From positions 640,001-704,000 of the forward strand of contig CAVOKF010000003.1 of the NCBI GenBank assembly GCA_963696385.1: a DNA stretch of 64,000 bases, given 5' to 3'. Below are positions 6,793 through 19,752 of the stretch, piece by piece (the stretch's first letter is position 1; every line of letters starts with the position of its first letter). Origin of the DNA: an uncultured delta proteobacterium. GTDB lineage: Bacteria > Myxococcota_A > Polyangia > Polyangiales > Polyangiaceae. The notes under the pieces were generated by a model, which saw only the letters and a list, made by a program, of their open reading frames with translations, had not been told where the DNA came from and did no database searches. A program made the translations under genes and the position numbers.

Positions 6793-7434
6793 GTGACGTT
6801 GGAACTCGCTCGCCGGCTGCTCCGGACCGATGCCGTCGATCACGACGCGCTCGCCACGGCTCTGCTCGAGTCCGAGGCCCGCCGGGTGCCGCTGGCGACA
6901 GCTCTCGTTTCAACGGGGGCGCTCGACGCGCCACGGCTGGCGCGCCTCCTCGAAGGCGCCTACGGCCCATTCATGGAATCGATTGTCCCGTGCATGGCCC
7001 TCGTTCGGGCCCTTCCCCTGGGAATCTGCGAGCGGCTGCTCGCGGTTCCGGTCGGGCGCAACCCGGCCACCGGGGCGGTCGATGTGGCGTTCGTCCAACC
7101 GACCGATGGCCATGCGATTCGAGAAATGGCGTATTGGCTGCGGGCCCCCGTGCAAGCCGTGCGTACGACCCTTGCCGCTCTTCGGATCGCGCTCGCAAGC
7201 TCGAGCGACAGCGAGACCCGCACACCCTATGGTTCCATCCGGCCGTCGGCCACCGGCCAACCGGATCGATCGAGCCCGATCCAGGCGCTTTCGGAGCCGA
7301 GCCTCGCAGGACCCCCGTCTTCGGCGAGTCCCATCACCGAACGAGGACCCTTTCCCTCTAGCTCTGCCGGGCCGGATGCTGCGCCGGTTCCGACGATGCG
7401 TGGGCCCCTTGCGCGTCGAAACCCGGAGCGATGA
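6793..7434 (+). CDS. Stand-alone GspE/PilB N-terminal (MshEN-like) domain protein with Pro/Ser-rich tail
   Basis: Degenerate MshEN repeats, then [14 protein letters not shown]...[22 protein letters not shown] start 6 nt after TATCCT. Confidence 0.65.
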
Positions 7435-7501
7435 CCGCGCGCGAGACACGAACCTACGGTATGGCTGCGAGCAAACCGCAACCGCCCCCCTGAGGTCCGC
7501 C

Positions 7502-9166
7502 ATGTCGGAGAACTCCAGGCTCCGCCGCCGATGGGCCGAGCAGACCCTAGCGCCGCACGAAGGCAAGGAACCACCGCGCCCCCGTGTCGCAAACCTGGCG
7601 GGACACGCCGATGCGGCCGACCTGTACGGTCCGGACGACCTCGAAGCGATCGCTTTCGATCCGTCGCGCGATCTCGGATTTCCCGGGGAGCCACCTTTCA
7701 CCCGCGGCGTCCAACCAAACATGTACCGCGGCCGGCTGTGGACGATGCGCCAATACGCCGGGTTCGGCACGGCCAAGGAATCGAACTCGCGGTATCGTTA
7801 TCTGCTGTCGCAGGGACAGACCGGGTTGAGCGTGGCCTTCGATCTTCCCACTCAAATGGGGCGCGACTCGGACGATCCGCGTGCACGCGGCGAAGTGGGT
7901 CGCGTGGGCGTTGCGATCGATTCGATCGAAGACATGCGCACGCTACTCGAGGCGCTGCCGCTCGACCAAATCTCGACGTCGATGACGATCAACGCCACGG
8001 CGGCGGCCTTACTCTGCCTCTACGTTGCCGTAGCGGACGAGCGAGGAGTATCCCGGGAGGCGCTCCGCGGGACGATTCAGAACGACATCCTAAAAGAGTA
8101 CATCGCGCGAGGGACGTATATCCATCCGCCCGGCCCGTCGATCCGCCTGATCACGGACCTCTTCGCCTGGTGCTCGAGAGAAGTGCCGAAGTGGAACGCG
8201 ATTTCGGTCAGCGGGTATCATATCCGAGAAGCTGGAGCCGACGCCGCCCAGGAGCTCGCTTTCACGATGGCCAACGGCATCGCATACGTCAAAGCGGCGG
8301 TCGACGCCGGCCTCGACGTCGATCGCTTCGGGGGACACATTTCCTTCTTCTTCAACGTTCAAAATGGCCTTGTCGAGGAGGTGGCGAAGTTCCGCGCCGC
8401 CCGACGCATGTGGAACACGCTCATGCACGAACGCTTCGGCGCGAAGACCGATCGCGCCCGAGCTCTGCGTTTTCATTGCCAGACCTCCGGAGCGAGCCTC
8501 ACGGCGCAGCAGCCGCTCGTCAACGTGGCACGCGTGACCGTGCAAACGCTGGCTGCGGTGCTGGGCGGCTGTCAGTCGCTCCACACGAACGCGTATGACG
8601 AAGCGCTCGGCCTCCCGACGGCGGAAGCGGCCACGATCGCCTTACGCACGCAACAGGTGGTCGCTCACGAGAGTGGAGTGGCGGATTTCGTCGACCCACT
8701 CGCAGGCAGCTATGCGGTGGAATCGCTGACGAGCCGGCTGGAGAATTTTGCCTTCGAGACGATCGGGCGCATCGATGCCATGGGCGGAATGGTGACCGCC
8801 ATCGAGCAGGGCTACCCGCAGCGTGAAATCCAGAGAACAGCGTACGAGCATCAGCTCGAGATCGAGCGCAAGCAACGCGTCGTCGTCGGAGTAAACGCCT
8901 TCGTCCAGGATGCGGCTCCGGTGCCGGTCGCGCAAAGCGATCCCAGCGTCGAGTCCAGTCAAATCGGGAGATTGAGAGCCATGCGCGCGCGGCGCGACGC
9001 CGCCGTTCACGCCGCCGCGCTGGAGCGAGTCGAGCGAGCGGCTCGCGGCACCGACAACGTCGTTCCTCACCTCCTCGACGCGGTCAAGGCGTACGCGACC
9101 GTGGGCGAGATTGCCGATGTCCTCCGGCACGTTTGGGGTGAGCATTCGGAAGCTCTCGTTCTGTGA
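7502..9166 (+). CDS. Methylmalonyl-CoA mutase large (substrate-binding) subunit, no B12-binding domain
   Basis: [53 protein letters not shown]; Tyr/Arg specificity pair; no DxHxxG domain. Confidence 0.92.
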
Positions 9167-13060: not shown

Positions 13061-15139
13061 ATGATCCCAGCATCGGATCCCGCCTTGGACGCGACCGCAA
13101 CGGCCGAGATGGCTGCGGATGCAAGTCCCCCGGCTTTGCGGGTGACCTGCGAGCACGCCGAGCGATGCGGCGGCTGCCCCCTGATCGGCTTACCGTACGC
13201 TGACCAGCTCGTCCTCAAGCGCGGAAGAGTCGTCCAGGGCGCTAGGAGGTATCCGGCCCTCGAGCTCGTGCACACGGAGCGGGTCCTGCCGGCACATCCG
13301 TTGGTCGGCTATCGCATCCGGGCGAAGCTCATCGTGGCTCCGGGCGCGAAGGTCGGGTTGTTCGCGAAGGGCGGGGGCCACCAGATCATCGACATACCGA
13401 AATGTCGCGTGCTCGCCCCCGCTCTCGCACGGGTTGCCGCCTACCTTCGCCGACGGATGGAGTCGGAGCATTCCGGCGGAGCCTTCGATCCATTCGATCC
13501 CACAGGTCCCGGCTCGCTTCGCGCCGTCGACTTGCGCGAAGCGCGTAACGACGGGGTAACCCGCGTCCTGGTGACATTCGTCGTGCAATTGCCCCGGCAG
13601 GCCGACCTTTCGGCTTGGGTGATCGCGGCGGAAGACATGATGCGCGAGCTCCCGGACGTCGTCGGCGTTGCGGCCAACCTGCACACCGGCGACAGCCCTC
13701 AGGTACTCGGCTCCCACACGGTCCCCCTCGCGGGGGTGTCCTCGACTCCAGACCGGATTGGCAGGTCCGTCCACTTGGCGACCTTCGGTTCGTTCGTTCA
13801 GGTCCATCGAGGTCAGGCCGAGCGCGTGCAACGGCTCCTGGCCGCAGCGGTTGCGTCGTTGAATCCGAGCGGCCGCGCGCCACGGGTGCTCGATCTCTAC
13901 GGGGGCTCGGGTGGGATCGCGCTCGGTCTCGCGGCAGCCGGCGCGAGCGTACGACTGGTCGAGTCCTTTGCGCCCGCGACTGCACAAGCGCGCCAGGCCG
14001 CACGAGAACAGTCGCTCGACGTCGATGTTCATTGTTCCGACGTCGCCACGGCGCTTCGCTCGTTTTACGAGCGCGCGGAACACTTTGACGCGGCAGTCGT
14101 GAACCCACCACGACGAGGAATGAGTCCTCAGGCGCGCGAGTCGCTCGCGCGCCTTGCGCCATCGCTCGTCGCCTACGTTTCATGCGACCCGGAGACGCTT
14201 GCACGCGACCTCGATCACTTCTCTCGGCTCGGCTACGACACCACCTCCCTGCGACCGCTCGACATGATTCCGCTCACGGACGAAGTCGAAACTATTGCAG
14301 TACTTCGCCGTGGAGGCATCCCGGTCCCGCGCGTCGCTTACGAGAACGACGAGGTCATCGTCGTCGACAAGAGCGCTCACGAACCGACGATGCCCCAGGG
14401 GGAGTACGCGTCGTCGCTCCTTACCCGTGCCCGGAGGCTGCCTGGAGCGCAGAATGCCGTCGCCGTGCACCGGCTCGACGTGGGGACGAGCGGGCTCGTC
14501 GTGCTCACGCGGCGCCCGGAGCATTTGGCCAAGTGGAAGCGAACGATATTCGCGCCAACGACGCGTACGATCTATGCGGCTGGGGTCCGCGGGGTGACTC
14601 CATCGAAAGGGACGGTGACGCGCGACCTGCGCGAAGAGGGCGCGCCACACCCGGCCCGAACCCGCTACAGACGCTTCACCATCGCCTCCGGGCACAGCAT
14701 CCTGCGCGTCGTTCCCGATCGTGAGAGGACTCACCAGATCCGCCGCCACTTGGCGTCGATCGGCCATCCCGTCCTCGGCGATGTACGCTACGGCCATGGA
14801 CTGACGAATCGGCACTTCGAGGAGAAGCGCGGCCTCGATCGAACGTTCCTGCACTTGGTCCGTCTGGAGTTCGACGATCCGGATACGGCGACTCGAGTCG
14901 TGGTCGAGTCGCCGTTACCCGGCGATCTTTGCTCGGTGCTCGAGCGCATCATCGGCCCGGATACGATCGGGCTTCTGGAACACGACAACTTCATGGGCAC
15001 GGCCCGAGCGTCCAGCGCGCCTCCCGCCGACACGGAGGTCCTGCCGGGATCCGAGACTCCCCTCGACGTCGACGCCCGCTTTCGCACGATTCGGCCCGAA
15101 CTGACCGATGACGAGGCGTCGGCCGCCGACGAATGCTGA
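13061..15139 (+). CDS. Fusion of RlmC/RlmD-type rRNA m5U methyltransferase and RluA-family pseudouridine synthase
   Basis: N-half: CEHAERCGGC Fe-S motif, SFVQV, VLDLYGGSG, NPPRRG, YVSCDPETLARD. C-half: VVDK, HRLD..TSG, THQIRRH...GHPVLGD..YG. One uninterrupted ORF. Confidence 0.88.
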   Translation: MIPASDPALDATATAEMAADASPPALRVTCEHAERCGGCPLIGLPYADQLVLKRGRVVQGARRYPALELVHTERVLPAHPLVGYRIRAKLIVAPGAKVGLFAKGGGHQIIDIPKCRVLAPALARVAAYLRRRMESEHSGGAFDPFDPTGPGSLRAVDLREARNDGVTRVLVTFVVQLPRQADLSAWVIAAEDMMRELPDVVGVAANLHTGDSPQVLGSHTVPLAGVSSTPDRIGRSVHLATFGSFVQVHRGQAERVQRLLAAAVASLNPSGRAPRVLDLYGGSGGIALGLAAAGASVRLVESFAPATAQARQAAREQSLDVDVHCSDVATALRSFYERAEHFDAAVVNPPRRGMSPQARESLARLAPSLVAYVSCDPETLARDLDHFSRLGYDTTSLRPLDMIPLTDEVETIAVLRRGGIPVPRVAYENDEVIVVDKSAHEPTMPQGEYASSLLTRARRLPGAQNAVAVHRLDVGTSGLVVLTRRPEHLAKWKRTIFAPTTRTIYAAGVRGVTPSKGTVTRDLREEGAPHPARTRYRRFTIASGHSILRVVPDRERTHQIRRHLASIGHPVLGDVRYGHGLTNRHFEEKRGLDRTFLHLVRLEFDDPDTATRVVVESPLPGDLCSVLERIIGPDTIGLLEHDNFMGTARASSAPPADTEVLPGSETPLDVDARFRTIRPELTDDEASAADEC

Positions 15140-15386: not shown

Positions 15387-15607
15387 GCAGGCTGCGGTCG
15401 GTCTCAGGAGCACGATCGCGATACTCTCACGTCTTGACGGGGCGGACCGGCCCTTCGCCGTCGGCCCCGCCTTCACGGCTTCGCTGGCGGTGCAAACGCG
15501 AATTGACGCCCCGGGCGCCCCGCGCTCGCGGGCTGCCGCTTCCGCCCCAATAAACCGTGGGCGAACACCGCGAGCGCACGCTAAGGTCTTGGCCGCGGAG
15601 AGCGGAC

Positions 15608-16165
15608 ATGATCCAGGACATGCAAAAGGAGCTGGGGGCCTCGCTCGCGAAATCGCATGATGCGCTCAAGCGCGAGCTCACCAAGCTTCGTGCCGGCCGG
15701 GCCAGCGCCTCGCTGCTCGACGGCATTCGAGCCGACTACTACGGCACCCCCACGGCTCTGGCGCAGATGGCTCACATCAACGTACCGGAACCGCGTCTCA
15801 TCGTTGTGAAACCTTGGGACAAAACCCAAATTAAAGCCGTCGAGAAGGCGCTACGTGAAAGCGATCTGGGCCTGAGCCCGCAAGTCGATGGAGACCTCAT
15901 TCGGGTTCCGCTGCCGCCGCTCACCGAGGAGCGTCGGCGGGAGTTCGTCAAAATTGCTCGCAAGTACGGCGAAGAATGTAAGGTCGCAATTCGGAAGTCT
16001 CGCCATGACGCACTCGACCTTCTCGGACAGCTCGAGGCCGAGGGCGAATCGAGCGCAGACGAGGTCGACCGCGCGAAGAAAAAGGTCGAAGAACTCGTCC
16101 AGGACGCCGTCAAGCACGTGGATGCGATCATTGCGAACAAGGAAAAAGACATTCTCGAGGTCTAG
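15608..16165 (+). CDS. frr: Ribosome recycling factor
   Basis: LRAGRA, DYYG.PT.L.Q.A, PPLTEERR, KEKDILEV. Confidence 0.97.
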   Translation: MIQDMQKELGASLAKSHDALKRELTKLRAGRASASLLDGIRADYYGTPTALAQMAHINVPEPRLIVVKPWDKTQIKAVEKALRESDLGLSPQVDGDLIRVPLPPLTEERRREFVKIARKYGEECKVAIRKSRHDALDLLGQLEAEGESSADEVDRAKKKVEELVQDAVKHVDAIIANKEKDILEV

Positions 16166-18006: not shown

Positions 18007-19752
18007 ATGACCGACGTGCCCATCGCGGGGAGACCCAACCCCGACGACTACGTGTCCGACGGTGAGTCGCCCGTGAATCTGGAGATGATTCGCCGTGCCG
18101 TCGCCGCGTGGCGAGCGGGAACATTGGCCCAATCCGTCGCAAAAATGCCACCTCGACAGGCTCGCTTCTCGACATGGAGCGACGTCGAGGTGCCGGATGT
18201 CTTGACGCCCGCGGAAGTTCCTATCGACTACCTCCGGGACCTCGGCATGCCGGGCGAATACCCATTCGCGCGTGGTGTTCAGCCGACGATGTACCGCAGT
18301 CGGCTCTGGACCATGCGCATGTTCGCCGGGTTTGGCACGCCCGAACAGACCAATTCCCGTTTCAGGTATTTGCTCGCACAAGGTCAAACGGGCCTCTCGA
18401 CGGCGTTCGATTTCCCGACTCTCATGGGGTACGACAGCGACAGTCCCCGCGCGCTGGGCGAAGTCGGAATGTGCGGTGTCGCCGTCGATACGTTGCGCGA
18501 CATGGACGTCTTGTTCGCGGACATTCCGCTCGACGCCGTCACGACGTCGATGACCATCAACGGTCCCGCCGTCGTTTTGCTCGCGTTCTATGTGGCGCTG
18601 GCGGACGTGCGCGGAATCGCGCGCAGCTCGATCGGCGGAACGGTGCAAAACGACTGCCTGAAGGAGTTCATCGCGCAGCACGCATGGCTCGTGCCTCCCC
18701 GGCCGGCGATGCGAATCGTGACCGACATGATTGCGTTCTGCGCCCGTGAGGTCCCGCGCTGGAACACGGTGAGCGTCAGCGGATACCACATTCGTGAGGC
18801 CGGTGCGACGGCCAGTCAGGAGCTCGCATTCACGATCGCCGACGGGATCGCCTATGTGCAGAGCGGGATCGAACGCGGTCTCGACGTCGACGACTTCGCA
18901 CCGCGGATTTCTTTTTTTTTCGACGTGCACAACGATTTCTTCGAAGAAATCGCGAAATTTCGCGCCGCACGCCGAATGTGGGCGCGCATCCTAAAGGATC
19001 GCTTCGGCGCGACGAAGGCCGAAAGCATGAAACTTCGCACGCATGCGCAGACCGCCGGCGTTACGCTCACCGCTCAGCAGCCGCACAACAATGTCGTCCG
19101 CGTGGCGCTCCAGGCGCTGGCGGCGGTTCTCGGCGGCACGCAGTCGCTCCACACCAATTCCCTCGACGAAACGTATGCGTTACCGACCGAAGATGCGGTG
19201 ACGATCGCACTTCGAACGCAGCAAATTCTCGCCGAGGAGAGCGGCGTCGCGAGCACCGTCGACCCACTGGGTGGCTCCTGGTACGTCGAGCAGGCAACCG
19301 ACCGGATCGAGCGCGACGCGCTCGAGTACATCCGCCGGATCGACGAGTTGGGTGGCATGGTCAGCGCCATCGAGAAGGGATACCCGCAGCGCGAGGTGGC
19401 GGCGAGCGCGTACCGTCTCCAGCGGCAACTGGAAGCGGGTGAGCGCGTCGTCGTTGGAATCAATAAGTATGAGAGCGATCGGCTGCCTGCGATTCCGCTC
19501 CTTCGGATCGACGAGACAGTTTGCCGGACCCAGATCGACAACCTGAGGCGCGTGAAAGCCTCGCGGGACGCGTCGCGGGTCGAACGAGCGCTCGCCGCGG
19601 TGCGCATGGCAGCGGCGGCCGAACCGGGAACCTCAGGGGCCAACCTGATGCCACCCATCATCGAAGCGGCGAAGGCCTATTGCACCCAGCAGGAGATCTG
19701 CGACGTTCTGCGGAGCGTCTTCGGCACGTACAACGACCCGGCGGAATTCTGA
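18007..19752 (+). CDS. Acyl-CoA mutase large subunit with isobutyryl-CoA-mutase-type specificity residues
   Basis: WTMRMFAGF (Phe) and [12 protein letters not shown] (Gln) replace the Tyr/Arg of MCM; no B12-binding domain. Confidence 0.85.

Follow-up and report, generated by a model that had tools for sequence, protein, structure and literature searches.

A TRAM-less m5U methyltransferase fused to a TruC-like domain whose pseudouridine synthase motif is missing from much of a mainly myxobacterial family

The fused gene and its distribution

The window, a stretch of DNA of 64,000 nucleotides, includes an open reading frame of 692 codons, uninterrupted by stops, in which a COG2265 m5U methyltransferase is followed by a pseudouridine synthase domain of the RluA family (Table 1). 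A first-pass annotation had proposed that the two families are combined in one ORF, and domain models do hit both halves of the product, NCBIfam and Pfam placing the methyltransferase at residues 20-417 and the RluA-family domain at residues 424-629. The motif positions given in that annotation, with CEHAERCGGC at residues 30-39, YVSC at residues 372-375 and HRLD from nt 14468, were confirmed, and the junction it placed near nt 14330 agrees with the domain bounds, which give nt 14320-14330. Searches of the PDB by sequence and by structure returned the two halves solely as separate proteins. Automatic annotation mislabels the fused proteins as RlmD or plain pseudouridine synthase; the automatic Pfam labels already list both domains.

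The gene is flanked by two ORFs about 9 kb apart, at 7400-9166 and 18007-19752, which we take from their sequence to be methylmalonyl-CoA-mutase-like large subunits, and frr lies at 15557-16165, with a PP2C phosphatase gene directly 3'.

Table 1. Coordinates of the fused gene and its features in the window
Feature	Position	Strand	Evidence or remark
Fused ORF, 692 aa	13061..15139	+	TRAM-less COG2265 m5U methyltransferase, TruC-like RluA-family domain and low-confidence tail
m5U methyltransferase half, residues 27-418; central and Rossmann domains, no TRAM	13139..14314	+	TIGR00479 158 bits (below cut-off); best sequence and fold matches RlmCD/RumA
Fe-S motif C30-x5-C36-x2-C39	13148..13177	+	Aligned to RumA C81/C87/C90
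Fourth Fe-S ligand C115	13403-13405	+	Aligned to RumA C162
F245-V-Q247, uracil-binding motif	13793..13801	+	RumA F263/Q265; each kept in 126/128 clusters
NPPRRG, residues 348-353	14102..14119	+	Same as E. coli RlmC; R351-G353 in predicted inter-domain interface
Catalytic Cys375	14183..14185	+	RumA C389; kept in 127/128 clusters
E408-V-E410	14282..14290	+	General base E410 kept; phosphate-binding His (RumA H422) replaced by Glu408
RluA-family, TruC-like domain, residues 421-632, short thumb region	14321..14956	+	PF00849 64.7 bits
HRLD, flipping Arg471 and catalytic Asp473, intact	14468..14479	+	R471Q in 91% sister and RNA-library contig
Motif IIa T503-I-Y505, lesion 1 (Lys at 503 in intact set)	14567..14575	+	Catalytic-set comparison
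E555-RTHQIRRH, lesion 2 (Gly555 in intact set); HQxRRH TruC-type	14723..14749	+	Catalytic-set comparison
LDRxFxH, residues 592-598, kept upon catalytic loss; 593-594 in predicted interface	14834..14854	+	
GDL, residues 621-623; 621-622 with predicted contacts to 63-64 and 381-385	14921..14929	+	

The fusion gene is real and conserved, and not an assembly error. Both halves occupy a single ORF at all 80 genome loci kept as a subset of the 179 relatives found, and their joint presence in the complete Labilithrix luteola and Sorangium chromosomes refutes an assembly artefact. The junction is spanned by DNA contigs from runs X3 and X7, which come from different studies (the X3 study being that of a possible source), and no indel was listed for the four sequencing runs compared at the fusion gene; the separate ORFs in relatives or read error that the first-pass annotation had named as ways to be wrong were looked for in these loci and runs and not encountered. 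That two neighbouring genes were joined by an assembly or sequencing artefact has next to no chance of being right: a few short database proteins do match the second half alone, but most of these come from contigs no longer than a few kb and are named methyltransferase, several of the 11 examined on longer contigs begin inside a domain or run out of frame, and the fused loci and bridging contigs of other runs stand against it. A search for unfused close relatives among shorter proteins gave mainly fragments. In RNA runs, the gene was represented by two short contigs from a single library, insufficient to prove expression.

All 120 homologues listed contain both halves, PF00849 included, at a similar length and with query coverage of 85-100%, and a fusion match (E<=1e-75) occurs in 94 of 121 family genomes. 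In a phylum sample of 251 genomes, for which top-scoring loci were inspected, full or remnant fusions are present in at least 36 genomes from 13 families. Among ESM Atlas clusters, those combining the two Pfam families come mostly from Myxococcota, and one remnant-type protein is assigned to a Planctomycetota MAG. The fusion was not found in G224, a genome of the same genus (97% complete, 180 contigs), which has a stand-alone TruC-like gene and an RlmD-type gene. The neighbourhood across the 80 loci involves local synteny only, with frr at 19 and a geranylgeranyl-reductase-like gene at 39 of them, and neither an RNA gene nor another hint of the target was found in the fusion-gene neighbourhood. 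An exhaustive profile search supplied the clusters for comparisons across the family; of the 150 best representative clusters, 139 reach the methyltransferase end; the second domain is present in 135 of these 139 and whole in 128.

The two halves and the erosion of the second

The methyltransferase half is TRAM-less, as had been described: only 6 more open codons lie upstream of the ORF start, and space for a TRAM domain is therefore absent. The first Fe-S Cys is preceded by 29 residues, without the N-terminal TRAM domain of RlmD and RlmCD, and an N-terminal extension of more than 45 aa is absent from 113 of 117 clusters of the fused family. The top 13 Foldseek matches of this half are RlmCD, RumA, archaeal and TrmA structures, RlmCD being the top PDB match both by sequence and by structure. 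With residue roles in RumA-type catalysis taken from the available part of PMC6235398, N348, R351 and E410 align to RumA D363, R366 and E424, the His found in RumA, RlmC and RlmCD (H422) is replaced by Glu, and the catalytic set F/Q/(N,D)/C/E is retained in 125 of the 128 clusters. The half is likely to be catalytically intact, and m5U formation is predicted. NPPR in place of DPPR, which the first-pass annotation had listed as a deviation, is not damage because E. coli RlmC itself carries NPPRRG; nor does it prove RlmC identity, since NPPR is also found in TRAM-bearing myxobacterial paralogues.

The second half exceeds the PF00849 cut-off of 26.8 bits, and its structural matches are RluC, RluA and RluD. 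Its earlier assignment to the RluA family stands on this model and on the fold; identity with RluA proper does not, RluA giving the lowest of the named-family scores (TruC 72, RluC 66, RluD 62 and RluA 46 bits), all of which are far below cut-off (328 bits for the TruC model NF008321). The sequence carries the TruC-type HQxRRH and a downstream NR motif, RluA having HQxRVH, and its thumb-region spacing is 13 residues shorter than that of RluA (79 vs 92); none of the marks of RluA proper (best match, HQxRVH, full thumb loop) was found. The best tree joins the second half with TruC-like proteins (79/96), a grouping favoured by the stand-alone comparison set, which consists of the top hits of the fused profile, and AU tests of its placement gave p 0.45 for an RluA sister position and p 0.385 for RluC, neither being rejected. 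The second half looks nearer to TruC than to RluA, a preference that is statistically undecided. Stand-alone TruC-like genes were matched in 13 of 69 genomes (E<=1e-38, a threshold that misses some, such as L090); two genomes with an intact fused motif also carry one. No stand-alone TruC-like gene was found in this genome, which has five other RluA-type genes, stand-alone or separately fused, besides RluD. A RluD-like paralogue in G000 (L008:1333-2670, minus strand) has SKALRHQIR instead of TGRTHQIR as motif III.

Loss of the flipping Arg abolishes RluA activity. This Arg (R471) and the catalytic Asp (D473), whose roles are described in the available text of PMC12710931, are both retained in 45 of the 128 clusters, compared with 25 of 26 stand-alone controls, and the catalytic motif is lost in the other 83. 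The RLD motif is kept at 43 of the 80 genome loci (again 25 of the 26 controls) and R-x-D in 107 of the 116 closest homologues, while just 43 of 128 clusters have Asp, flipping Arg, Tyr and salt-bridge Arg together. A set of 16 residues, catalytic or on the substrate side, decays jointly, with bimodal scores (60 clusters at 0-3 and 40 at 14-16), and the motifs SG, GHS, HP-GD, LDRxFxH and DL persist after catalytic loss. On a tree of the methyltransferase half only, built from 127 clusters and the window protein after one cluster without catalytic Cys or Glu had been dropped, the R-x-D state changes 27 times (shuffled mean 37), at least 10 of these changes being forced by starred branches. The changes are read as repeated losses because regain of a whole active site would be unlikely. 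In about one third of the lineages, the pseudouridine catalytic set is complete, and these enzymes are likely to have remained bifunctional. Since so many clusters (83 of 128) are without the motif, retention of the fusion cannot be explained by joint catalysis on adjacent uridines.

In several families, the domain has shrunk to a remnant of some 130 aa that still holds the C-terminal motifs. Fusions of this remnant type, in which the tail measures about 125-200 aa and is devoid of every pseudouridine catalytic motif, were seen at L045, L048, L051-L054, L056, L057, L064, L065, L070 and L173. Foldseek on a remnant-type model gave solely methyltransferases among the best 50 matches listed, and the PUS fold of the remnant is suggested by sequence alone, at 21-87 bits. 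Of 14 remnant-type genomes, 10 gave no TrmFO match, and the genomes without TrmFO hold 3-4 COG2265 matches; tRNA U54 methylation in these TrmFO-less genomes must either be carried out by some COG2265 paralogue or be absent.

The copy in the window has 14 of the 16 catalytic-set residues, with the changes K503T and G555E, and keeps R471, D473, Y505 and R561. The first-pass reading of RERT for TGRT is a true deviation, with E555 in place of the Gly of the intact set. R-x-D is kept in 2 of the 61 clusters with both K503T- and G555E-type changes, against 37 of 37 with both positions intact; close homologues with both lesions retain it in 8 of 11 cases. One 91%-identical relative has R471Q and another keeps HRLD. 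Values of dN/dS for window versus sister are 0.18 vs 0.22, with 31 and 15 nonsynonymous differences, too few to show relaxation. The earlier suggestion that one half could be impaired holds for the pseudouridine half, which appears to be eroding, and fails for the NPPR-bearing methyltransferase half. We infer early decay of the pseudouridine half in this copy, which may still be active as a pseudouridine synthase, activity being clearly the less probable of the two states.

Docking, ancestry and the likely target

The pseudouridine domain is under purifying selection where the Arg has been lost: dN/dS is 0.086 for the Arg-less domain vs 0.103 for the methyltransferase half in 11 Sorangium genes (NG86, non-independent pairs). 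A 5-gene group with an RDD/RED motif keeps Arg and Asp and was left out of this evidence. Structure prediction gave a pTM of 0.82 for the full protein and 0.92 for one remnant-type protein. Folded as two chains, the halves reached a docking score of 0.81, compared with 0.00 for the best of 3 controls, with contact agreement of at least 88% between runs and a partner pLDDT of at least 86; the docking mark is reached by 116 of 157 solved pairs and by 2 of 215 mismatched pairs. Because the input consisted of two parts of a single chain and a paired alignment, the score is support for rigid packing, short of a demonstration. The predicted interface involves residues 60-66 and 351-390 against 438-456, 587-594 and 620-629, positions that, as a set, are only slightly above the domain average in conservation (0.52 vs 0.47). 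Residues 60-66 and 351-353 adjoin Q59 and R351, which correspond to RumA R110 and R366, and these RumA residues contact the RNA backbone at or next to the TRAM cleft according to the available part of PMC2528175. The predicted docking places the pseudouridine domain against the methyltransferase close to the TRAM cleft; by sequence mapping only, the domain would occupy the TRAM side.

In a methyltransferase tree of 57 rows, a single clade (95/97) contains 15 of the 16 fused proteins. Separately from RlmD and RlmCD, this clade falls into a branch (89/94, not starred) that also holds RlmC and ten stand-alone proteins of myxobacteria; the fused proteins lie outside the RlmC clade proper (100/100). 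AU tests on 36 rows gave p 0.449 for RlmC as sister, p 0.079 for RlmD, which is disfavoured without being rejected, and p 0.0125 for RlmCD, which is rejected. The fused protein scores 125-158 bits with RlmC models, far below their cut-offs of 553-558. The RlmC/RlmD-type label of the first-pass annotation is consistent with the shared branch, a weak one, and is not borne out by the RlmC models. Stand-alone members of the RlmC-containing branch occur in six fusion genomes too, so the branch cannot be equated with U747 enzymes. Trees of both the methyltransferase half and the pseudouridine domain support a single origin of the fusion.

Only one other COG2265 gene is present in this genome, TRAM-bearing and grouping with RlmD, and the genome also encodes TrmFO and TruB. 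The TruB gene stands against replacement of TruB by the fused protein, and replacement of TrmFO by the full fusion is rejected on the presence of TrmFO in 17 of 20 other full-fusion genomes. The 23S rRNA keeps U746, U747, U1939 and U576 (E. coli numbering), with the loop sequence G745-U-U-G-A-A-A-A. Where E. coli has U955, the aligned position of the 23S rRNA at G000:C4:653461-656418 (L016) is an A, and a search of the genome for an RlmA zinc-ribbon domain gave no match. Because the genome has a separate RlmD and TrmFO, and U747 in its 23S rRNA, U747 would be the likeliest methylation target. The U747 determinants of RlmCD (F145/Q162/N249) are not conserved in the fused protein, and RlmC is without them too. 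It has been speculated that TRAM is unnecessary for U747 (PMC5614603, available part), and m5U747 is described as the least conserved m5U site (PMC3241648, available part).

We tentatively favour, at a little under an even chance, an intact methyltransferase predicted to act on 23S U747, with the docked TruC-like domain serving as a structural or RNA-positioning module whose own catalysis is dispensable across the family and probably weakened here. The history of the family is best read as that of an ancestrally bifunctional enzyme whose pseudouridine domain has repeatedly turned into a non-catalytic module. The transition would have involved an ancestral TRAM-less COG2265 enzyme acquiring a C-terminal TruC-like synthase. 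By family chemistry, the target U would be flipped by the methyltransferase and attacked at C6 by C375, SAM would donate a methyl group to C5, and E410 would take the proton, releasing the product. The docked domain, predicted to sit where the missing TRAM would be, likely braces the catalytic domain and positions the RNA, and isomerase activity would be retained in about one third of the lineages and lost in the rest.

The same architecture with a fading half could also belong to a methyltransferase retargeted to a uridine that is unmethylated in E. coli, which could lie in 23S or 16S rRNA, for example at the U576 equivalent, or in tRNA outside position 54, an alternative that is unlikely and still deserves weight. 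COG2265 paralogues do shift sites, as in the case of RlmS/YfjO, which makes m5U620, equivalent to U576 in E. coli numbering (bioRxiv 10.64898/2026.04.17.719261, available part). U576 is present in the 23S rRNA of this genome, the RNA-contact residues are unlike those of all characterised members (H422 to E408 and FQxN to VQxH), and several same-branch paralogues occur together in six genomes. However, the sole other COG2265 gene is RlmD-type, mirroring the E. coli pair of RlmD and RlmC; NPPRRG, K89 and the loss of TRAM are common to RlmC; and no RNA gene or other hint turned up in the neighbourhood. Similarly doubtful is a wider proposal in which the pseudouridine domain replaced TRAM, about one third of the lineages are two-active-site enzymes placing both modifications, m5U and pseudouridine, in the same RNA at a site not known from E. 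coli, and the rest form a series, repeated at least 10 times, leading from a bifunctional enzyme to a methyltransferase with a 130-aa pseudoenzyme targeting module.

That this copy is fully bifunctional, making psi746 and m5U747 in the loop of 23S helix 35 as the first-pass annotation had suggested, is improbable. It is consistent with the intact HRLD, Y505 and R561, with a 23S loop that fits the RluA consensus (PMC12710931, available part), with an RluA sister position that is not rejected and with the clusters that keep the catalytic pair, in which the rest of the set is co-retained. However, RluA scores lowest among the named families, the thumb is short of that of RluA, K503T and G555E are present in a lineage whose sister has R471Q, clusters with both lesions rarely keep R-x-D, and any of the five other RluA-type genes could supply psi746. 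The 746/747 pairing is possible without being supported, and nothing specific to psi746 was found.

Still less probable, with only a slight chance, is a tRNA T-arm enzyme whose TruC-like domain would hold the T-stem (psi65) and whose methyltransferase would be responsible for m5U54. The TruC-like affinity of the second half, the lack of a stand-alone TruC-like gene in this genome, the occurrence of U65 in 19 of 45 parsed tRNAs and the missing TrmFO matches in remnant-type genomes would all agree with it. However, TrmFO is present here and in most other full-fusion genomes, two genomes with an intact fused motif have a stand-alone TruC-like gene as well, and in TrmFO-less genomes another COG2265 paralogue can act on U54.

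Relation to known systems

RlmC of E. coli makes 23S m5U747, RluA makes psi746 and tRNA psi32, and TruC makes tRNA psi65. With RlmC/RumB, the fused protein shares the absence of TRAM, the four Fe-S Cys, NPPRRG, a Lys (K89) at the position of RumA R132, the full catalytic set and the weakly supported branch, whereas it differs in the added 210-aa C-terminal PUS domain and in the Glu at H422. RlmD/RumA and RlmCD/YefA have the same fold and mechanism, but the fused protein is TRAM-less and its genome has its own RlmD-type gene. TruC and the myxobacterial TruC-like proteins share HQxRRH, the downstream NR motif and the lack of an S4 domain with the second half, which, unlike TruC, is fused, has lost its catalytic motif in most lineages and falls far short of the TruC cut-off. 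The family fold, HRLD and the lack of an S4 domain are shared with RluA, from which the second half departs in having HQxRRH rather than HQxRVH, a shorter thumb and a score of 46 bits. RlmKL likewise combines two rRNA-modifying catalytic domains in one chain; these are two methyltransferases, both active, and not a methyltransferase-isomerase pair. Human RPUSD3 has an RluA-family domain without the catalytic Asp and with no detectable activity, according to the available parts of PMC12710931 and PMC12716993, but it is stand-alone and eukaryotic, whereas the fused family involves repeated, graded loss inside a fusion with a predicted active enzyme.

A second, independent fusion in G000 (C8:155782-157515, minus strand, L003) consists of an RluA-family domain followed by an RlmI/RlmK-like SAM methyltransferase, and fusions of this type have matches in 34 of 41 family genomes; ESM Atlas clusters with PF00849 and PF10672 are commonest in Bdellovibrionota, Verrucomicrobiota and Myxococcota. 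In Bacteroides finegoldii (L222:224-1982), rlmD is followed directly, on the same strand, by an unfused RluA-family pseudouridine synthase gene.

No description of an m5U methyltransferase-pseudouridine synthase fusion was found in a full-text literature search, which covered few subscription journals. The architecture would be previously undescribed, each domain being known singly. In this family, one domain can be compared in active-looking, half-eroded and remnant form across cultured, non-pathogenic bacteria, making testable how COG2265 enzymes move to new targets when TRAM is absent and how a catalytic domain is converted to a targeting module.
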